A stretch of 64,000 nt of DNA from Candidatus Parcubacteria bacterium (GCA_039795895.1 JBDKKW010000001.1:18837-82836); one strand, 5' to 3'; shown: positions 9,184-34,360, counted from the stretch's first letter. Notes: generated from the letters alone by a model not told the origin. A program made the numbers and translations.

Positions 9184-9768
9184 ATGGTGAAAATCATCGC
9201 TGTTGGCACTGATTGTCAGTTTGGGATGGAAGACTTTGTAGTGAAACTGACCCGCAAGATACCGATTCACTGGCAGAGAATCTTCCCGGCGTGGCATGTG
9301 GTGATCATTGATCACTCACAGACCTTTCGGACCGTTGATTCCTTGTGGTCGGTATTTAAGCAGGGTGGATTTGATGCTCGCAATTATTCAGCTATGGCTG
9401 ATAATGCCGATGACTGGTGGTCAGTACGAGTCGCGCTTCAGCCACCAAACGAAAAGAGTATTGCTTGGGTCGTTTGGATTCGGCACTCAGAAGATCGTGC
9501 ACTACTTCGCTTCTTGTTTTTTGTCGAAGTGGGAGCGATTCTCTGGGGGAGCAATGCGCATCTCCGGACACTCTGGGGCTTTTCGGCACTGCAACACTGT
9601 GGGGTGAAGTCCGAAAATGATTCCGGACAGATGTTTTGTGAGGGATTTGCACATTATATGATTGATCGCCGTCGGTCCTATATGTGTAACTCGCCCATCA
9701 ACCATTTTCTCCACGATTTGGATGATAAGATTCGGGCCGGACACCTTTCGCTCGAACTGCCGACGTAA
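9184..9768 (+). CDS. Hypothetical Trp-rich protein (194 aa)
   Basis: Strong RBS gaaaagaggtgacttATG. Followed by two terminators. Confidence 0.5.
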   Translation: MVKIIAVGTDCQFGMEDFVVKLTRKIPIHWQRIFPAWHVVIIDHSQTFRTVDSLWSVFKQGGFDARNYSAMADNADDWWSVRVALQPPNEKSIAWVVWIRHSEDRALLRFLFFVEVGAILWGSNAHLRTLWGFSALQHCGVKSENDSGQMFCEGFAHYMIDRRRSYMCNSPINHFLHDLDDKIRAGHLSLELPT

Positions 9769-12863: not shown

Positions 12864-12923
12864 AAAAAGAATTGTGTGGAGAGTGTCGTCTCAGCACAAT
12901 TCTTTTTTGTGCACAGACTCCAA

Positions 12924-13319
12924 TTAAATTCCGAATTGCTTTCGGAATTTCTTCTCTTCGTTCTCCATTGTACTACTATGTTCCATTCCTTTCAAATGCA
13001 GACATCCGTGGATAAATAAAAATGGCAAGAAATTTTCGATAGGGCGATCAAATTTGGGTGCTTCGTGTTTTGCTGTCTCGATGTCGAGATAAATTTCGCC
13101 TTCAAAAGAGTTGAGTGGGAAACTTAAAATATCGGTCGGGAAATCTTTCTGTCGATACTCGCGATTGAGTCGATGGGTCTCGGTGGGTGACGTGATGATG
13201 AGAGCGAGATCGTACTCCTTTCCCAAGATAGCTTCTTTGATAGAGGCAAAAAGCAACCGGTCAGGTGACGGGTTGCTTTTTGTTTTGATATGGATTTGAA
13301 AGTTGTCAGAACTCGCCAT
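12924..13319 (-). CDS. ybeY: Endoribonuclease YbeY (rRNA maturation factor)
   Basis: HGCLHLKGMEH zinc-binding H3xH5xH motif; 131 aa. Confidence 0.85.
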   Translation of the reverse strand: MASSDNFQIHIKTKSNPSPDRLLFASIKEAILGKEYDLALIITSPTETHRLNREYRQKDFPTDILSFPLNSFEGEIYLDIETAKHEAPKFDRPIENFLPFLFIHGCLHLKGMEHSSTMENEEKKFRKQFGI

Positions 13320-13337
13320 AATTACACGAATTTTTTT

Positions 13338-13460
13338 AAAAACTTCTAAAATTATTTCATCTGCGTCGTTGCTTCGCTTGTTTGCTCCTGCGCGGTAGGT
13401 CTACTACCGCTTAGTCACAAGCCTCGCTCACGCCTCGCATCTAAAGCGATTTTAGAAGTT
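13338..13460. repeat. Inverted repeat AAAACTTCTAAAAT ... ATTTTAGAAGTTTT (14-bp arms, about 95-nt spacer) with an internal hairpin GCGGTAGgtctaCTACCGC
   Basis: Lies in the intergenic region between rpsU and ybeY. Confidence 0.5.
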
Positions 13461-13709
13461 TTAACGACCTCGCTTCTTGGTCTCCTCTACGAGCTTACCT
13501 TGTTTAATCAACAATGCTTTTTCTGCTCGAGTAGCAATACCTTCAAGAGTTTTCATCTTGTTTTTGTAGTGCGAAAGTACTCGCTGGTTGTAGCGAAGTG
13601 AACGAACACGAGGAATAATACCTGAACCCTGGACACGCTTGGTAAAGCGACGCAAGACCGAAAGTCCTGTTTCTGATGCGTTTTTGGTGATTTCTACGTT
13701 TATAGCCAT
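13461..13709 (-). CDS. rpsU: 30S ribosomal protein S21
   Basis: MAINVEITKNASETGLSVLRRFTKRVQGSGIIPRVRSLRYNQ matches the S21 pattern I.V.....LRRFKR..G....R.R..Y. Internal ATG chosen as the start. Confidence 0.7.
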   Translation of the reverse strand: MAINVEITKNASETGLSVLRRFTKRVQGSGIIPRVRSLRYNQRVLSHYKNKMKTLEGIATRAEKALLIKQGKLVEETKKRGR

Positions 13710-13837
13710 GAGGGAGAGTCTAACATATGGGCAGATGAGAAGCAAGAGAGATAAGAAGACGAGTCAGATCGGAAGGGAAACTACTTAAAGAGCTCATACA
13801 CAAATAGTACACGGCCGGGCATAACTTTTGTATGAAA

Positions 13838-13875
13838 AAAAGTAAAAGAAAACGCCGTCCGGAAGCCGGACGGCG
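13838..13875 (-). terminator. Terminator CGCCGTCCGG-ctt-CCGGACGGCG plus U-run; homologous to the terminator at 17078-17112
   Basis: Minus-strand read: ...ctacgccgtccggcttccggacggcgttttcttttactttttttc. Confidence 0.65.
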
Positions 13876-13891
13876 TAGAGTGGGGAGGTGT

Positions 13892-14332
13892 TTAATCGGC
13901 GAGCTCCTTTGCTGACATGCCGATTCGCAGACCGAATCTGGCAAGTTCCTGATTCAACTTTTTGACTTTATTTACGCCAAAAGGTCGAAATTCAAGGTAG
14001 TCATTCTCGGTTTTGGCACACACTAATCGTAGCGTTGAAAGCTTTCTACTGGCCAGACAATTCATGGTCCGTGGATCAATGTTGAGTACTGATACCGAGA
14101 GATCGAGATTTTTGTTGTATGAGGGTATTTCTTCGTACCACACCGAGAAGACTGTGGTGACATAGAGGCACCCATCCTGGTGCGGGGATGCCGTGCTTGT
14201 TTGGGTCTGGTGAATAGACTTCACGTTGACTGTTTGCACGAATTCTGACATCCGATTTTCAATGTCGTCATCGATAATACTCAGTCCGCCATCAGTGATT
14301 CGGGCCAGCTCACGGAAGATTTTTACTTTCAT
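13892..14332 (-). CDS. Small protein with an RNA polymerase alpha-subunit C-terminal-domain-like (alphaCTD, HhH) region
   Basis: C-term ...IDPRTMNCLASRKLSTLRLVCAKTENDYLEFRPFGVNKVKKLNQELARFGLRIGM aligns with E. coli alphaCTD ...[52 protein letters not shown]. Start taken at MKVKIF (ATG 14332), immediately after the conserved leader. Confidence 0.6.
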   Translation of the reverse strand: MKVKIFRELARITDGGLSIIDDDIENRMSEFVQTVNVKSIHQTQTSTASPHQDGCLYVTTVFSVWYEEIPSYNKNLDLSVSVLNIDPRTMNCLASRKLSTLRLVCAKTENDYLEFRPFGVNKVKKLNQELARFGLRIGMSAKELAD

Positions 14333-14442
14333 AGAACAGTATTTTTCAGAAGTCCAAAAACAGGTGTTTTTGGCAACGGCGACGAATCGCACTTCTATAC
14401 CTTTCTGCTTAGTACGATACACGTACTATGGATATTTGTCAA
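14333..14442 (-). promoter_or_regulatory. Promoter (TTGACA-N17-TATCGT) plus about 75-nt structured 5' leader; paralogous to 16601-16709
   Basis: Minus-strand read: ttgacaaatatccatagtacgtgtatcgtactaagcagaaaggtatagaagtgcgattcgtcgccgttgccaaaaacacctgtttttggacttctgaaaaatactgttctATG. It contains a GCGA-UUCG-UCGC tetraloop hairpin and a CCAAAAAC/GUUUUUGG hairpin enclosed by GAAGU/ACUUC. Confidence 0.6.
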
Positions 14443-14469
14443 TATATTCATTGTTGATGTGGTGTAAGG

Positions 14470-14510
14470 AGAAAAGCCCCGAAAAATGTCCGACATTTTT
14501 CGGGGCTTTT
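14470..14510 (-). terminator. Terminator AAAAGCCCCGAAAAATGtccgaCATTTTTCGGGGCTTTT after hisS
   Basis: Perfect hairpin with flanking A/T runs. Confidence 0.6.
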
Positions 14511-14524
14511 CTGGTTGTAAGTTG

Positions 14525-15778
14525 CTATTTGCTTGTGGGTACTTTTGTTCCTTTCAGCTTCTTCAAATACGCCGGCACATCCTCAATCTTCACCGTATCT
14601 TGCGAACGGTCGGTCATATCGCGGACAATCACTGAATTTTCCATCGCTTCTTTGAGACCCATAATGAGAAGGAACGGCACTTTTGATTTTTCGGCAATAG
14701 CGATTTGGCTCGCCATACGATCGCGACAGAGTGCTTGATGCACGGGAATCTTTGCTTGGCGGAGCACCTCGATAACCTTCAAACTTTTGAGCTTCGCCTC
14801 AAAGCCAAGCTGAATAAAGTAGACTTCGGGCTTCTTCACTTTATGATTGGCTTTTTCGCCAGTCGGCTTTTTAAATTGGAGGAGTGCGCATGCGCCGGGA
14901 ATATCTTTTTTGGCACCAAGTTTCTTTGCGACTCCATCGTAGCGACAGCCGACCGCGAGCGCAGGCTTACCAGAATCTCGGGTGCAATCACTGTTGCGAA
15001 TCTCAAATACTGGTCCTGAAGAGAAGTTTGGGTTACCGACGAGTAGATTTTGGATAGTGTAGGGGATATCAAGTGTTTCCAAATACTCGAGGATTTCTTG
15101 GAAATGATGACGATTTGGCTCAGAGAGGAAGCTGATTGATTGCGGAGCTTCAACAGCAAGCTTTTTGCAAGTTTCGTGTGCGCTACACGAGAGGAGACTG
15201 TAGATGCTCGACTTCATGGCCTGGCGACAAGCGGCGGGAAGATCATTGATGTGTTTTCGATAGTAGGCAGTTAGCTCCTTGGTGAATCGAGCAAAAGAAT
15301 CTTTTTCACCAATACTGTTGATTTCAAGATGAAGATTCTCATAGCCTTCTTCTTTGAGAATGGCGATTGAGGTCTCGATAATAATCGCCTCGGCAATACT
15401 CTTTGGGGTGCCGATAATTTCCAGGTAGCACTCCATTTCTTTGTTGTCCTTTTTGGTTGTTTTGCCTTCCTGTGGAAATGGACCCTTGATGTAATGGGTG
15501 AGTGGTTGGGGGAGATTGTGCCAGTTGTTTTCGGTATATTCACGGATAATCGCTGCGCGACTTTCAATGGTAAGATCGCTCCAGCCGGTAGAGAGAGCCT
15601 CTTTTTCGATGGCTGACTCAATGTGTTTTGCATTGGTTTGATCTTCTTTTTTGATGGTCGGAGTCTTTTGTGGGGTGAAGCCGTAATACACCGCTACTTC
15701 AGCAGCAGTATCAATATCTTTGTATGCAGTATCAGATTCTTTCGGGACAATTTGTTTCATTTTATTTTTTGCAGACAT
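14525..15778 (-). CDS. hisS: Histidine--tRNA ligase
   Basis: Class II aaRS core and anticodon-binding domain: ..ECYLEIIGTPKSIAEAIIIETSIAILKEEGYENLHLEINSIG.., ...GGRYDGVAKKLGAKKDIPGACALLQF. Confidence 0.9.
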   Translation of the reverse strand: MSAKNKMKQIVPKESDTAYKDIDTAAEVAVYYGFTPQKTPTIKKEDQTNAKHIESAIEKEALSTGWSDLTIESRAAIIREYTENNWHNLPQPLTHYIKGPFPQEGKTTKKDNKEMECYLEIIGTPKSIAEAIIIETSIAILKEEGYENLHLEINSIGEKDSFARFTKELTAYYRKHINDLPAACRQAMKSSIYSLLSCSAHETCKKLAVEAPQSISFLSEPNRHHFQEILEYLETLDIPYTIQNLLVGNPNFSSGPVFEIRNSDCTRDSGKPALAVGCRYDGVAKKLGAKKDIPGACALLQFKKPTGEKANHKVKKPEVYFIQLGFEAKLKSLKVIEVLRQAKIPVHQALCRDRMASQIAIAEKSKVPFLLIMGLKEAMENSVIVRDMTDRSQDTVKIEDVPAYLKKLKGTKVPTSK

Positions 15779-15789
15779 AGATATGGTGG

Positions 15790-16392
15790 TTAATTATTTT
15801 CGGTGCTCATAAATTTCCCCGGAAATTTCTCGATAGTTGAAAATGGGTACAGTCGGACAAGTGGTCTACCGATAATTTCTTTTTCAGGGAGCGGACCCCA
15901 GCTTCGTGAGTCGAAGCTTGCACTGCGGTTGTCTCCCATTACAAAATATTCAGAGGGGCCGAGGGTTTTAGTGAGAGTGTTTGACCACGGTACTTTTACG
16001 TACGACTCGTCGAGCACAAAGCCTTTCGGATGTTCAGTATTGATGATAGTGACTTTTGTGCCAGAAATGCTGATGGTCTCGCCAGGGAGGCCAATGATGC
16101 GCTTAATATAAAATTTACTTTCGTCGAGTGGTGGACGGAAGATGATGGTTTCGCCACGGGCTGGTTTTTGAAAATGATAGGTGAGCTCGTCGACGATCAA
16201 ATATTGTCCGTCGGCAAAGGTCGGGTGCATTGATTCACCAGAGACGATAAATGGCTGAGCGACGTAGAGGCGGATAGGGACGACAATGACAAGGACGATG
16301 AGTGCAAAGCGGAGGAGTTCTTTCCACTCGGCCTTTGGGGTGAGGGTATTTACTGGGGTAATTGGCTGGTTTGGGGTAGGATTTTCGAGCAT
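15790..16392 (-). CDS. lepB: Signal peptidase I
   Basis: VSGESMHPTF (catalytic Ser box), GDNRSASFDSRSWG box, and an N-terminal TM helix. Confidence 0.85.
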   Translation of the reverse strand: MLENPTPNQPITPVNTLTPKAEWKELLRFALIVLVIVVPIRLYVAQPFIVSGESMHPTFADGQYLIVDELTYHFQKPARGETIIFRPPLDESKFYIKRIIGLPGETISISGTKVTIINTEHPKGFVLDESYVKVPWSNTLTKTLGPSEYFVMGDNRSASFDSRSWGPLPEKEIIGRPLVRLYPFSTIEKFPGKFMSTENN

Positions 16393-16600
16393 TGGTGATG
16401 AAATAGAGCCTTAGATTAAGGGTCTGCGGTCAAAAACAGAAGAACAGTGGGGGTATTATACTATCCATTAGTATTTTACACAACGGATGATTTTATGGCC
16501 GAATAGAGCCGTTTTTTTGGGATTTAGCCAAAAAACGGCTCTATTACAACGTATTTATACTAAGATGACCCCGTACTTAAAGCTTTACGGGGTGTATAAT

Positions 16601-16709
16601 TTGACAAGTAAATAATATATGTGTATTATTATAGATAGAAAGGTAGAGAAGTGCGATTCGTCGCCGTTGCCAAAACATCCGTTTTTGGACCTCTAGAAAG
16701 AACTGTTCT
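16601..16709 (+). promoter_or_regulatory. Promoter (TTGACA-N17-TATTAT) plus structured 5' leader; paralogous to 14333-14442
   Basis: ttgacaagtaaataatatatgtgtattattatagatagaaaggtagagaagtgcgattcgtcgccgttgccaaaacatccgtttttggacctctagaaagaactgttctATG. The 55-nt core is near-identical to copy A. Confidence 0.6.
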
Positions 16710-17066
16710 ATGAAAAAAATGCACATCTTTTTCTGTTTTCTCTCGGTTATCCTAGTAGGATTCAATCTCCTAATTCAGATAGATATCGAAAGATCAGAAC
16801 GGTGGATAATAATAGCGATAACCTTAAGCTTGGTATTTCAGATCGAAGAAGATGGTCCTGTCGCAACAACACTCAGTTGTCTTTTTGCGTGCATCACATG
16901 GTTGGGTATCATGGTGGTATCATTTCGAGAACCCCTTAGATTTATCGAAAACTTTTTCTACGCTGCACTGTTTGTGCTTGGAGCACATCTCTTACTGGGC
17001 TACAGCAGTTTTCGTAAATTACTTGATTCAACACCAAAAATCGGTGTGCAAGAATCAGGTCAGTAG
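16710..17066 (+). CDS. Small integral membrane protein (118 aa)
   Basis: Three or four predicted TM helices. Embedded between the paralogous leader and terminator modules. Confidence 0.55.
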   Translation: MKKMHIFFCFLSVILVGFNLLIQIDIERSERWIIIAITLSLVFQIEEDGPVATTLSCLFACITWLGIMVVSFREPLRFIENFFYAALFVLGAHLLLGYSSFRKLLDSTPKIGVQESGQ

Positions 17067-17077
17067 GTATCGTTTTA

Positions 17078-17112
17078 CACCGTCCGGCTTCCGGACGGTG
17101 TTTTCTTTTTCA
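17078..17112 (+). terminator. Terminator CACCGTCCGG-ctt-CCGGACGGTG plus T-run; homologous to 13838-13875 with a compensatory G:C to A:T change
   Basis: acaccgtccggcttccggacggtgttttctttttcattttt. Confidence 0.65.
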
Positions 17113-17243
17113 TTTTTCCCTACTTTATACTTTTTATTCCAACGAGCGAGAAGCGCGTGGACAATTCTGATTGTATACAGCGTCCGAGTCGAAGTTGGAT
17201 CAAAGAGTGGCAACTCTTTACTTTCTACTATATACTTTCTGCC

Positions 17244-17861
17244 ATGAACTACATCATCGTCGGCCTCGGTAATCCTGGAGAAGAATACAAAGATACTCGC
17301 CATAATGCGGGAAGGATTGTGCTCGATACTTTTGCAAAATCTATTTCGGCAGATGAGCTTGGGGTGGACAAGAAATTAAATGCACTGGTTTCGATTGCGA
17401 CTGTAGCAAAGAAAAAAGTGACGCTGGTTGAGCCGGAGACTTTTATGAATAAATCGGGGCTTTCGGTGAAGCCTTTGGTGAAAGTGGCGAAGTCCAAGAT
17501 TTTTAAAGGTGGCACAGCAGAAAATCTAGTGGTGATCCATGATGATCTCGATATTCCGATTGGTAAGTTTAAAATTTCGTTTAATAAAAGCTCGGGTGGA
17601 CACAAAGGAGTTGAGTCAATCATTAAAGCGATTGGCACGGAAGCTTTTGTGCGGGTGCGTATGGGTATTTCACCTGTCAGTCCTTCGGGTAAGCTAAAAA
17701 AGCCGTCAGGCGAGGCATTGATCGGTGATTTTATTGTTGATCCATTTAAAAAAGCGGAGTTGGAGTTGATTAAAAAGTCTGCAAAGAAAGTGGCTGAAGG
17801 TCTCGCGGTTCTCGTCGAACATGGCAAAGATAAAGCGATGAGTGAGTTTAATGGGCTGTAG
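17244..17861 (+). CDS. pth: Peptidyl-tRNA hydrolase
   Basis: MNYIIVGLGNPGEEYKDTRHNAGR..., the canonical Pth N-terminus. Confidence 0.9.
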   Translation: MNYIIVGLGNPGEEYKDTRHNAGRIVLDTFAKSISADELGVDKKLNALVSIATVAKKKVTLVEPETFMNKSGLSVKPLVKVAKSKIFKGGTAENLVVIHDDLDIPIGKFKISFNKSSGGHKGVESIIKAIGTEAFVRVRMGISPVSPSGKLKKPSGEALIGDFIVDPFKKAELELIKKSAKKVAEGLAVLVEHGKDKAMSEFNGL

Positions 17862-19655: not shown

Positions 19656-19955
19656 TTCAAAATTGAAACCCCACGATACCCTTCTTAGGTGTATCGTGGG
19701 GTTTTCCTTTATCGATAACGAACGAGAATCCTTTTGGTGTATGTTGCGGAGTTGAGCCAGCAGGGTCAGTCAAGAGATGTGTCTGCACATTATCTTGACT
19801 GTGGCGAGACGAGTGAGAAAGTGCGGGGCACTTTCGCAAGACTCATTGAGATTCTTTCTTTAAAAATCCAATGAGTGGACAGTTCCTGTAAGGAATAGGA
19901 AAAGCCGGCGCTGGCCGGCTTTATCCGCGTACACCAAAAGTGATGGAGTGAGTCT

Positions 19956-21191
19956 TTACTTCTTATCTCCTGTGAACGCCAGTGTCATCTTCTGCTCCTT
20001 CGGATCAAACAAAGTGATTTTAAATGGATACACCTTACCGAGCTCGAGCTTCTTGCGAAGCATATCTTCACTACCAAACTCTGATACATGCACAAGACCT
20101 GCTACACCTTCTTCGATTGAAGCGAGTGCACCATGCTTGTTGAATTTGATAATCACACCAGAGACAGTCTGCTCTTTCTTGTATTTCTTAGCAGCTTCTT
20201 TCCATGGATTTTCCTTGAGTGCCTTGATTGAAAGCGATACTTTGCCATCCTTTACTTCAATCACTTTCACGCGCACTTTGTCGCCAATCTTGTAGAGTGT
20301 TTTTGGATTCTCAACGAGTGCCCAATCGATTTCAGAAATGTGCACCAAGCCTTCAAGACCCTCTTCGACTTTCACGAAGATACCAAAGTCGACAAGGCCG
20401 GTCACTTCGCCAGTTAATTCATCGCCAACCGCATATTTGACGGTCATCTTCTCTTTCTCTTTTTCTACCGGACTCTTTTCAGAGAAGATAAGTTTACCTT
20501 CCTTTGGATCTGAGCCGATGATTGAGACGGTGAGGCGAGTGCCTACCAATTTTCGCAACTCTTCAAGAATGCGATCCTTGTCGCCATCCTGTACGCGAGG
20601 GTAGTGATCAGCTTTGAGCTGAGACGCTGGCAAGAAGCCAACAATCCCTTGCCACTCCATAATCAAACCACCCTTGTTTGCTTCCTTTACGGTAAGTTCA
20701 ACGAGAGTCTTGTTTTTGATAATGTCTTCTGCCTCACTCCAGATGAGTGCCTGTCGAGCTTCCTTGAGTGACAACTCGATGTAGCCTTCAGGGTGTTCAG
20801 TATCAACCACTTTTGCAGCGATGGTGTCGCCGATGTTGATCTTTTTAATGATGTCGCGGGCATTGATGTATTCACGACCGTAAATAATACCCGTGCCGAT
20901 AGGGGCAAGGTCAACATACACGCCAGATTTATCAATCGCAATGACCGGACCTTCTACCAAGTCACCAATCGCTGGTGGATTTTTACTGTCTGCCAAAAGC
21001 TGATCCATGACGGTGAGTTTTTTTGGACTCACTTCCTCAGAAGCTTCGACAGCTTTTACCTTTGAAGCTTTTGCTTTCGCTGGAGCTTCTTTTTTTGCTG
21101 GGGTCTCGGTGGTTGCGGTCTTGGTTGCAACTTCCGCTACATCTGCTTTTGCTTCGTCTTTCTTCTTACGTGAAAAAATACCTAATACCAT
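19956..21191 (-). CDS. rpsA: 30S ribosomal protein S1 with a Lys/Ala-rich N-terminus
   Basis: Multiple S1 domains (..GDLVEGPVIAIDKSGVYVDL.., ..GTRLTVSIIGSD.. and others). The long N-terminal extension in the ORF track was trimmed to MVLGIFSRKKK. Confidence 0.9.
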   Translation of the reverse strand: MVLGIFSRKKKDEAKADVAEVATKTATTETPAKKEAPAKAKASKVKAVEASEEVSPKKLTVMDQLLADSKNPPAIGDLVEGPVIAIDKSGVYVDLAPIGTGIIYGREYINARDIIKKINIGDTIAAKVVDTEHPEGYIELSLKEARQALIWSEAEDIIKNKTLVELTVKEANKGGLIMEWQGIVGFLPASQLKADHYPRVQDGDKDRILEELRKLVGTRLTVSIIGSDPKEGKLIFSEKSPVEKEKEKMTVKYAVGDELTGEVTGLVDFGIFVKVEEGLEGLVHISEIDWALVENPKTLYKIGDKVRVKVIEVKDGKVSLSIKALKENPWKEAAKKYKKEQTVSGVIIKFNKHGALASIEEGVAGLVHVSEFGSEDMLRKKLELGKVYPFKITLFDPKEQKMTLAFTGDKK

Positions 21192-21650: not shown

Positions 21651-22073
21651 ATGAAAAAAATCAAAGTTGGTTTTGTTGGTTATTGCCCACCCACTCGTTT
21701 TAATGTGGATGAGGCTCGACGAATGATTATCGAGGCTTTTAGCATGATTCTTGCGGAAAACCCAGATACCAATATCACTCTGGTTTCAGGTCTGTGCAAT
21801 GTTGGTTCCCTCGCTATCGCTTACGAAGAAGCGGTTAAGTTGGGATGGAGGACGGTCGGCATTGCTTGCGAGAAGGCCAAGGAGCATCCACATTTTCCTG
21901 TCGATGAGAAAATCATCGTTGGTGCTGAGTGGGGTGATGAAAGCACTGCCTTTGTTTCTTCACTCGATATGATTGTCCGAGTTGGAGCTGGTAAACAAGG
22001 ACGTCGTGAGACTGAAGCGGTGAAGGCTTCTGGTAGGCCCGCATTCGAATACGAACTCCCTGTTCTTCAGTAA
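21651..22073 (+). CDS. Rossmann-like small protein, possibly SLOG/DprA-LOG-like (DUF2493-like)
   Basis: KVGFVGYCPP...ITLVSGLCNVGSLAIAYEEAVKLGWRTVGIAC; family assignment is weak. Confidence 0.45.
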   Translation: MKKIKVGFVGYCPPTRFNVDEARRMIIEAFSMILAENPDTNITLVSGLCNVGSLAIAYEEAVKLGWRTVGIACEKAKEHPHFPVDEKIIVGAEWGDESTAFVSSLDMIVRVGAGKQGRRETEAVKASGRPAFEYELPVLQ

Positions 22074-22079
22074 TTCAAG

Positions 22080-22112
22080 GCTCGCGCCCTGCGCGAGCCT
22101 TTTTCTTTTTCT
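22080..22112 (+). terminator. Terminator AAGGCTCGCGCcctGCGCGAGCCTTTTTCTTTTT; the stem sequence is repeated at 23285
   Basis: Hairpin plus T-run. Confidence 0.65.
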
Positions 22113-23268: not shown

Positions 23269-23284
23269 AGATTGGAAATAGAAA

Positions 23285-23312
23285 AAGGCTCGCGCGTTGC
23301 GCGAGCCTTTGC
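23285..23312. terminator. Hairpin AAAGGCTCGCGCgttGCGCGAGCCTTTg between convergent genes
   Basis: Same stem sequence as the 22080 terminator. Confidence 0.5.
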
Positions 23313-23321
23313 TGAAAGAAC

Positions 23322-23681
<360 letters not shown>

Positions 23682-33841: not shown

Positions 33842-33849
33842 AGGTTGTA

Positions 33850-34194
33850 TTATGCGATGTTTTTGTTCATCACTGAAATCTCGTCTAATTTCTGACGAGT
33901 CTTCTCGCCTAAGTCTAACTCAAAATTGAAAAATGGGATACGGCCAATCTTTGAATGCGAGAGAACGTATTGTCGAAATTCTCCTCGCATACGCTTGGCA
34001 AAGTCGAGTGCCATCGCTTCTTTGTCCTCGGGCATCACGGTGATATAGATGGTGGCTTGTTTACCTTTGTCGAAGACGGTCACGTGTGTCACGGTGATGA
34101 GAGAAGTGCGGTTTGACTCAGCCTGAAGAAAGCGAGCGGCAAGCTCACGAATCATATCTCCGAGACGTTCGTCTTTGTGTGCATCAACAGGCAT
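33850..34194 (-). CDS. rbfA: Ribosome-binding factor A
   Basis: MPVDAHKDERLGDMIRELAARFLQAESNRTSLITVTHVTVFDKGKQATIYITVM... Start trimmed to MPVD. Confidence 0.8.
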   Translation of the reverse strand: MPVDAHKDERLGDMIRELAARFLQAESNRTSLITVTHVTVFDKGKQATIYITVMPEDKEAMALDFAKRMRGEFRQYVLSHSKIGRIPFFNFELDLGEKTRQKLDEISVMNKNIA

Positions 34195-34360
34195 AGAGGG
34201 TAGTATACACGGGGGTAGGGTAGAAGCAAGATGGGGGATTAGACGAGTCAGCAAGAGAGATAAGAAGACCGGTCAGACCGAAAAAAAAGACGAGGACAGT
34301 CGCAAAGCGATCGTCTCTCACATGTCTTCTTGTCTGACAGGTCTGACTTGTCTTCTACAC

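Follow-up and report, generated by a model that had tools for sequence, protein, structure and literature searches.

A 64,000-nucleotide (nt) stretch of Candidatus Parcubacteria DNA (the window, to whose full length all coordinates refer unless a contig is named) holds two unrelated genes, here called A and B, in one and the same non-coding frame of promoter, 5' leader and terminator. The frame recurs in related genomes with either gene inside it, and comparison of the copies shows its leader and terminator to be under nucleotide-level purifying selection, changing about as slowly as the non-synonymous sites of housekeeping genes. We lean towards regarding the frame as a lineage-specific, self-contained expression scaffold: a selected element of the 5' untranslated region (5'UTR), probably working at the RNA level, combined with an exchangeable cargo. 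The scaffold would consist of a sigma70-type promoter, a 5'UTR of about 73 nt that begins with a conserved single-stranded 5' end (AGAAAGGUA) and continues through a 47-nt domain (two hairpins closed by a third helix) and an A-rich linker, a start region without a Shine-Dalgarno sequence (UGUUCUAUGAAA), and a strong intrinsic terminator. Within a clade of Parcubacteria at genus level, its place would be the intergenic hisS-rpsU slot, where the open reading frame (ORF) would have been exchanged between the unrelated A and B, either by recombination in leader and terminator or by differential loss from a tandem ancestor, and one relative would have lost the cassette altogether. The leader would act in the transcript, setting the stability or translation of the cargo mRNA or serving as the target of a trans-acting factor or ligand; a side effect may be that the conserved flanks act as homology arms by which cargo moves between strains.

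On the plus strand the window runs from rpsU through terminator, gene, leader and promoter A to a hisS-like gene and lepB, then through promoter, leader, gene and terminator B to pth. The two cassettes lie 2.1-3.2 kb apart in inverted orientation around hisS-lepB, with leaders inward and terminators outward, just as an earlier reading of this DNA from its sequence alone (the sequence-only reading) had described. An independent Logan assembly (L001; L numbers are our handles) is 100% identical to window positions 12961-16520 and has the same orientation; an exact-protein look-up with the window S21, made for more strains, returned L001 only. The features are as follows.

13461-13709, minus strand: rpsU (S21), downstream boundary of the slot, with orthologues 3' of the cassette in L002, L005, L051 and L052
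13842-13876, minus strand: terminator A, predicted intrinsic, ACGCCGTCCGG-CTT-CCGGACGGCGT followed by TTTCTTTTAC
13892-14332, minus strand: gene A, 146 amino acids (aa), with Pfam, NCBIfam and PDB matches; orthologues P0002 and P0003
14333-14406, minus strand: leader A; the first conserved sequence is AGAAAGGTA, about 7 nt past the -10 box, and the last is TGTTCT, ahead of ATG
14349-14395, minus strand: predicted three-way junction of leader A, helix GAAGU/ACUUC with hairpins GCGA-UUCG-UCGC and CCAAAAAC-ACCU-GUUUUUGG
14414-14442, minus strand: predicted promoter A, TTGACA-17 nt-TATCGT, from a consensus scan
14525-15778, minus strand: hisS-like gene, between the cassettes; it defines the slot and lies outside the element
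15790-16392, minus strand: lepB, between the cassettes; it likewise defines the slot and lies outside the element
16601-16629, plus strand: predicted promoter B, TTGACA-17 nt-TATTAT, from a consensus scan
16637-16709, plus strand: leader B, from the alignment and a covariance-model match
16648-16693, plus strand: predicted junction of leader B, weakened by a hairpin 2 that is one A short and an A-C mismatch in the closing helix
16710-17066, plus strand: gene B, 118 aa, an apparent four-helix membrane protein
17077-17111, plus strand: terminator B, predicted intrinsic, ACACCGTCCGG-CTT-CCGGACGGTGT followed by TTTCTTTTTC
17157-17861, plus strand: pth, 3' neighbour of cassette B

Alignment of the regions 14320-14460 (minus) and 16580-16722 (plus), which match from the -35 box through ATGAAA, together with that of the terminators, bears out the claim that the expression modules are common to two genes with no similarity to each other. 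The longest exact word common to both leaders is 29 nt (AGAAGTGCGATTCGTCGCCGTTGCCAAAA), and a 24-nt core of the leader occurs exactly twice in the 64 kb and never in 100 shuffles. Both leaders are about 73 nt long and end in TGTTCTATGAAA. They had been described as nearly identical apart from five substitutions and one indel; the similarity stands, but between GAAGTG and ATG we count seven substitutions and one indel. With 10 and 11 of 12 matches to the sigma70 consensus and a 17-nt spacer (a sequence match only), promoters A and B have the hexamers and the 16-18 nt spacing expected of sigma70-type promoters, and none of the six scaffold copies described below departs from the -35 TTGAC or the 17-nt spacing. 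ATGAAA is likewise invariant among these copies, the cargo ATG lacks a Shine-Dalgarno sequence in every one of them, and all six leaders contain AGAAAGG followed, after 7 nt, by GTG.

At the other end, the terminator stems (13852-13876, minus; 17077-17101, plus) have 11 base pairs (bp) each, a CTT loop and a common tail (TTTTCTTTT), and the single compensatory G:C to A:T pair that had been reported between them is indeed there. The hairpin of the scaffold has 8-9 G-C pairs out of 11, a loop of 3 nt and a tail TTTCTTTT, and lies 10-16 nt past the stop codon. Changes in it keep the pairing (G:C to A:T in window copy B, a G-U wobble in L002), and identity over its 32 nt averages 0.95 across the copies. 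The combination of hairpin and U-tract identifies the 3' element as a predicted intrinsic (Rho-independent) terminator. A second inverted pair of near-identical terminators is present elsewhere in the window (22077-22111 and 23275-23310, AAGGCTCGCGC-(CCT/GTT)-GCGCGAGCCTT with a common T-rich tail), closing an unrelated 140-aa ORF (21651-22073, plus) and a PII-like gene (23322-23672, minus), and it may be usual in this genome for unrelated neighbours to have a terminator in common.

The leader fits no described RNA family among the 4227 models of Rfam 15: a scan of the window at gathering thresholds returned tRNAs only, and permissive scans gave nothing that overlaps the leaders (13700-17300, E up to 5; L052 11200-12250, E up to 1). 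A covariance model built from the six scaffold copies matches leader A at 14327-14406 (106 bits) and leader B at 16637-16715 (97 bits). With its filters off, the model found only these two copies in the 64 kb and one copy per related locus, so that, as far as these sequences reach, the small regulon that had been proposed is not supported.

Copies in relatives and exchange of the cargo

Contigs from relatives were chosen through homologues of A or B and close hisS orthologues. Six distinct scaffold copies are available in all: the window copies (winA and winB), L051_B, L052_B, L002_A and L005_A, with L052_B identical in L053-59 and L002_A identical in L003 and L004. L052-L059 represent the Hainich groundwater population, where gene B is 41% identical. 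Four further distinct copies were recovered in this way, in support of the view that the modules share an origin, look functional and are kept in related genomes. Wherever the contig reaches, the relatives have a single cassette between the 3' end of hisS and rpsU, the position of gene A in the window; its cargo is A in L002-L004 and L005, and B in L051 and L052-L059. In the window, the slot holds A, and a second, inverted copy with B lies between lepB and pth.

The order pth, lepB, hisS, slot, rpsU, ybeY, ftsA, ftsZ is rigid apart from the varying content of the small slot, lepB-hisS-slot-rpsU-ybeY-ftsA being found in all relatives. L060, with a hisS 87% identical to that of the window, has an empty slot and no cassette between pth and lepB either. 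In family-level relatives (hisS 52-55%), hisS either directly adjoins rpsU or is followed by a 226-aa HD-type gene without the leader, and the covariance model found the leader in none of L061-68 (hisS 52-55% identical). Because L060 and the family-level relatives are without the cassette, we take the scaffold to be an insertion specific to one genus-level clade. The 226-aa gene in the slot of L061 (4097-4777) and L062 (3253-3933), where hisS is 55% identical, has a weak PDEase_I/HD match; judging by gene order, insertions into the hisS-rpsU slot have recurred across the family.

Leader identity between pairs of the six copies is 0.80-0.92, with a mean column identity of 90%, and the two window leaders, at 0.90, are about as diverged from each other as from the copies of other genomes. 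For hisS, ftsA, ybeY and lepB among the host genomes, synonymous divergence (dS) is 0.8-3.9, identity at 4-fold sites 0.39-0.62 and non-synonymous divergence (dN) 0.03-0.26, the synonymous sites of hisS, ftsA and lepB being saturated; for these three genes dS is 1.3-3.9, identity at 4-fold sites 0.39-0.53 and dN 0.07-0.26. The cargo proteins are only 41-73% identical between genomes, and the intergenic DNA 5' of the promoter is unalignable among the copies. In the only plausible upstream reading frame of the leader the third positions of 4-fold codons are near-invariant, and after a 1-nt indel the peptide changes wholly, so what is constrained is the nucleic acid rather than a peptide. A recent local duplication and nothing more, which the sequence-only reading had named as the outcome that would count against it, is removed by the conservation of the leader across genomes that are saturated at synonymous sites.

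Flanks and cargo do not follow the same pattern of relationship. The promoter spacer of L002_A is 0.86-0.89 identical to those of L051_B and L052_B, and the downstream flank of L005_A, past the terminator, is 0.90-0.93 identical to those of the same two copies. As spacer and downstream flank group by locus and not by cargo, the flanks are orthologous while the ORF differs; the exchanged unit extends from just past ATGAAA to just ahead of the terminator stem. The cargo replacement that had been put forward is thus demonstrated, with A or B in the same scaffold at the orthologous hisS-rpsU slot of different populations. Copy B of the window has its nearest flanks in copy A and its nearest coding sequence in L051. 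Between the window and L051, gene B has a dS of only 0.36 against 0.78-1.71 for ybeY, ftsA and hisS of the same pair, and this low value suggests that the exchange of gene B is more recent than the divergence of the genomes. Most simply, strains or copies would have recombined with one another inside the conserved leader and terminator; alternatively, an ancestor with A and B in tandem would have been resolved by deletion, leader to leader or terminator to terminator.

The leader fold and competing explanations

RNAalifold independently returned the two-hairpin junction that the sequence-only reading had drawn for the leader. Its consensus has a closing helix GAAGU/ACUUC around the hairpins GCGA-NUCN-UCGC and CCAAAA(A)C-NNNN-GUUUUUGG, with an invariant linker C(C/U)GUUG between them; the consensus comprises 17 pairs, and pairing holds in 98% of cells. 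Hairpin-loop columns are variable in 6 of 8 cases versus 16 of 70 for all others (Fisher p = 0.005), paired columns in 5 of 34 versus 7 of 13 for unpaired ones (p = 0.01), and the L052 leader has one compensatory double change, from A-U to G-C. In leader A the junction is the minimum-free-energy fold, with folding z-scores of -2.7 and -3.0, and leader B folds no better than its shuffles (-0.13 and +0.59). That the stem of the second hairpin is kept in both window copies, as had been stated, does not hold, since copy B has lost one A there (7 versus 8 nt) and has an A-C mismatch in the closing helix.

Conservation sets in about 7 nt past the conserved -10 box in all six copies, that is, in the predicted 5'UTR. 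We favour a role at the RNA level because the conserved block coincides with this predicted 5'UTR and contains a nested multi-helix junction with invariant linkers, and we regard the leader 5'UTR as a candidate for a new cis-acting RNA of narrow distribution. No expression platform of the kind expected in a riboswitch-like leader (terminator/antiterminator, or sequestration of the start region) was found: no alternative pairing is conserved among the copies, the alternative hairpin of L002 not being kept in L052. A more ambitious version, in which the 47-nt junction is a new class of factor- or ligand-sensing RNA that forms, with the terminator, a portable "plug-and-play" slot whose ends double as homology arms, seems to us doubtful; if it were true, episymbiotic Parcubacteria could express any recombined-in accessory gene under one control signal.

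Several observations weigh against an RNA-level scaffold. Covariation is limited to a single pair and lacks significance, the observed score being reached by 86 of 500 shuffles; two mismatches (winB and L005) are uncompensated, and the folding z-score is significant for winA alone, the other five lying between +0.6 and -1.8. The two copies with four A's in hairpin 2 have a different minimum-free-energy fold, and every stem of the leader is also a DNA palindrome, compatible with an operator. The variants number only six and come from one narrow clade, and the copy number is that of a 64-kb window on a contig of about 136 kb. The two large nucleotide scans gave only matches in unrelated high-GC coding sequence: 34 for GTGCGANTCGTCGCNGTTGCC over GTDB species genomes and 11 for AGTGCGANTCGTCGCNGTTGCC over JGI/ENA metagenome contigs, mostly in one Verrucomicrobia gene, with the leader flanks in none. 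(A leader scan of a viral collection gave no matches, and phage and plasmid collections gave no match.) Finally, the direction and mechanism of cargo exchange are ones that we infer.

The palindromic stems raise the possibility of a DNA operator in the initially transcribed region, where a repressor, possibly the gene A product regulating A and B, would bind GCGA..TCGC and CCAAAAAC..GTTTTTGG. All three helices are perfect or near-perfect palindromes in DNA, the single compensatory change is equally compatible with a palindrome, and the thermodynamic support for the RNA fold is weak. Gene A has a domain like the C-terminal domain of the RNA polymerase alpha subunit (alphaCTD), and the A-tract/T-tract palindrome resembles sequences that alphaCTD binds, as is known from UP elements; moreover, the L002 orthologue of gene A keeps the equivalents of R265, N268 and G296-K298-S299, the DNA-contact residues. 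We nevertheless consider an operator unlikely. The leader is as well conserved ahead of B in L051 and L052-59, where no A is seen in 5.6-21 kb of sequence, and this also leaves the proposal that gene A regulates itself through the leader unsupported, their connection being adjacency in three genomes and nothing else. Homologues of gene A come from three populations only (in a search of 5.8 billion sequences that missed the L052 homologue of gene B), the AlphaFold model of the protein is unusable, and three nested palindromes with invariant linkers (AGAAAGGTA, CGTTG, TGTTCTATGAAA) fit an RNA junction better than an operator.

The leader might instead be translated, with AGAAAGG as a Shine-Dalgarno sequence and GUG 7 nt on as the start of an upstream ORF that runs through the hairpins and then either stops at a UGA sharing bases with the cargo AUG (AUGA) or continues in frame into the cargo, delivering ribosomes to the cargo start. 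AGAAAGG is complementary to CCUUUCU, the 3' end of 16S rRNA in many bacteria, which may not be that of the host. No copy departs from the AGAAAGG-7 nt-GTG arrangement, all six have an open GTG frame (three of them reaching the ATG in frame, three ending at the overlapping TGA), the invariant ATGAAA guarantees that TGA, and the cargo has no Shine-Dalgarno sequence of its own. However, two of the three frames are open anyway, so that six open frames out of six would arise by chance with a probability of about 0.09; the peptide past the A4/A5 indel is wholly different between copies, and invariant synonymous positions mean that selection is not for the peptide. A special device is also hardly needed, as a Shine-Dalgarno-like motif accompanies only about 9 of the window's 55 large ORFs, and several genes look leaderless. 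We think such a coupling ORF quite improbable.

Could the conserved ends instead be recombination sites of a mobile gene cassette, with hairpins recognised by a recombinase or transposase in the manner of attC or repetitive extragenic palindromic elements? Presence, absence and alternative content at one slot, an extra window copy at a new site, a terminator palindrome unusually conserved while the hisS terminator of the same genomes drifts visibly, and the second near-identical inverted terminator pair (at 22077 and 23285) would all suit such a cassette. Yet no recombinase, integrase or transposase adjoins any copy, and the genes within about 5-10 kb are housekeeping ones (pth, lepB, hisS, rpsU, ybeY, ftsA, ftsZ, gyrA); no target-site duplications or attC-like core were seen on reading the sequence, so that integrase and core sites, the marks of a site-specific cassette, are both missing. 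The outer flanks are orthologous, the promoter is inside the conserved unit, copy number is 1-2, and the phage, plasmid and viral collections hold no match, all of which makes a mobile cassette very unlikely. To a recent functionless local duplication, or a segment inverted as a switch through its inverted repeats, we give hardly any credence, in spite of the inverted copies 2.1-3.2 kb apart around hisS-lepB and the closeness of the copy B flanks to those of copy A. The divergence of winA from winB (0.90) is about that from the copies of other genomes (0.80-0.92), in which synonymous sites are saturated. An inversion would have no effect, since both cassettes bring their own promoters; exact identity does not exceed 29 nt; and L001, the only independent assembly, has the window orientation, so that the inversion-prone pair of the sequence-only reading is not supported.

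Other readings of the leader were tried and dropped. A conserved leader peptide, sense or antisense, was rejected as the A4/A5 indel puts the frames out of register. Base pairing of the 5'UTR with the 3' end, as in the hbs mRNA, was rejected because duplex energies were no better than those of shuffled leaders (fractions 0.32-0.85). Complementarity of the leader to a nearby structured element, X (GAAGTG against CACTTC), is taken for a coincidence, as the X stem compensates in the window copy while the leader is unchanged.

The cargo genes and their neighbourhood

Gene A has a conserved N-terminal domain (about residues 1-67) and the alphaCTD-like domain (70-140). The latter matches Pfam RNA_pol_A_CTD (PF03118) at 28.2 bits against a cutoff of 23.8 and alphaCTD chains in the PDB at E = 1.6e-4, and the L002 orthologue matches the NCBIfam rpoA model at E = 5.5e-19 over the CTD part only. 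By these matches gene A is assigned to the alphaCTD family and is not RpoA itself, having 146 aa and no N-terminal assembly domain. The protein search gave two homologues with 49-53% identity, and a HMMER profile search of 1.84 billion representatives gave thousands of alphaCTD domains and a handful of short full-length relatives. The dN/dS ratio of gene A is 0.16-0.27, the N-terminal domain being far better kept than the alphaCTD part. The AlphaFold2 model, made from three sequences, has a predicted local distance difference test score (pLDDT) of 42. Defence-system, phage and NCBIfam libraries searched with A and B returned only the alphaCTD match.

Gene B matches no known family; its product resembles a membrane protein of four helices, and the N-terminal helix and the C-terminal tail, STP(K/R)IGVQE, are conserved. 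The 5.8-billion-sequence search gave one homologue, at 69% identity, and is of limited sensitivity, as it missed that of L052. Among the copies compared (window 16710-17066; L051:1458-1814; L052:11525-11878) the gene evolves fast, with dN/dS of 0.37-0.52 versus 0.02-0.14 for housekeeping neighbours. Homology between the A and B cassettes stops at ATGAAA and resumes near the terminator; a likeness of the coding ends (an MK.. start and an ..IG(V/M)..QE.. tail) was rejected, the local alignments being no better than shuffles (fractions 0.01-0.75).

In relatives, element X lies between the cassette terminator and rpsU. It is a conserved stretch of about 190-270 nt (window 19694-19963, plus; L052:11961-12152; L051:1894-2085; L002:781-973; L060:4843-5062), for which RNAalifold gives 63 pairs in a three-way junction with a closing stem of about 20 bp and, among four sequences, 10 pairs with compensatory double changes. 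It has no Rfam match and is a candidate for a novel structured non-coding RNA on the strength of this modelled fold. The window copy has an 80-nt insertion and has moved to a place between a small ORF and an S1-domain gene, 2.6 kb past terminator B; this displacement relative to the relatives indicates that the window lineage has been locally rearranged.

Of the genes that define the slot, the hisS-like gene has a good match to the anticodon-binding domain and a sub-threshold one to the HisRS catalytic core in Pfam (E = 0.0043), and some database sources label its relatives as a HisZ-like regulatory subunit. A palindrome, (T)AGAGCCGTTTTTT...AAAAAACGGCTCT(A), is kept 5' of lepB (window 16495-16545; L060 about 2725-2765; L052 about 9232-9282; L051 about 1275-1325) and in L051 also lies 5' of the slot cassette; it has the look of an insulator or of a terminator acting in both directions, and in the window it has a sub-threshold match to the Rfam "trpB motif" (35.6 bits against a gathering score of 59). 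The rpsU, pth and ftsA genes have -10-like TAGACT, TATACT and CACAAT 7 nt ahead of ATG (13710-13730, 17225-17247 and 12864-12885) and no Shine-Dalgarno sequence, which suggests leaderless mRNAs. A motif, AGCAAGAGAGATAAGAAGAC, is repeated with 88% identity over 34 nt just 5' of rpsU (13741-13774) and of the ORF at 33849-34254 (minus; motif at 34250-34283), and a similar string lies 5' of pth in L060 (about 2560-2600); it may be a promoter-proximal element.

Known systems and meaning

The scaffold is akin to known kinds, namely an orphan leader motif and gene replacement between conserved flanks, and is not categorically new. Replacement of non-homologous genes between conserved flanks is familiar from idiomorph-like loci and from the exchange of capsule and O-antigen cassettes by homologous recombination. 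As in those loci, unrelated sequences alternate here at an orthologous position, and the phylogenies of flank and cargo are incongruent. The present unit differs in being a single ORF, with conserved flanks of only about 110 nt and 35-48 nt that are the gene's own regulatory signals and boundaries at ATGAAA and the terminator stem. Integron gene cassettes likewise combine a single ORF, a 3' imperfect palindrome and variable content at one site, but the scaffold has its own promoter and a 3' palindrome of intrinsic-terminator form with a U-tail, and no attC core, integrase or array was seen.

Orphan cis-regulatory leaders (Rfam "Cis-reg; leader"; Weinberg et al. 2017, PMC5737381) resemble the scaffold leader in being short conserved elements between transcription start and start codon, with a multi-helix junction, variable loops, conserved junction nucleotides and unrelated genes downstream. 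The scaffold leader differs from them in having no Rfam match, 1-2 copies per genome region, a range of one genus-level clade, minimal covariation, no evident terminator or sequestering hairpin, no ligand suggested by its cargo, and a matching terminator that is co-conserved with it. The 5' mRNA stabilisers of Firmicutes (STAB-SD of Bacillus thuringiensis cryIIIA, PMC4113751; Bacillus subtilis hbs, PMC5737220) also combine a Shine-Dalgarno-like site at the extreme 5' end (AGAAAGG in the scaffold), far from the cargo start and followed by structure, with a strong terminator, in a small autonomously transcribed unit. The likeness is one of sequence, and the predicted duplexes between 5'UTR and 3' end are in the scaffold no better than shuffles. 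AGAAAGG-7 nt-GUG might serve as a stabiliser that binds ribosomes, or it might begin a coupling ORF.

The scaffold is an unusually clean natural case of an ORF replaced inside its own regulatory frame, and reduced genomes could turn over accessory genes in this way without new expression signals. The element is defined to the nucleotide, from transcription start to ATGAAA plus the terminator, and short enough for synthesis and probing. To our knowledge, gene regulation in the Candidate Phyla Radiation is almost unknown, none of the clade is genetically tractable, and very few group-specific cis-regulatory elements have been described. Should the leader turn out to affect only stability or translation, the addition to knowledge would be neat but small. 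Should it bind a factor or ligand, it would found a new class of regulatory RNA, and one that could be put to use as a part for gene expression in these organisms.

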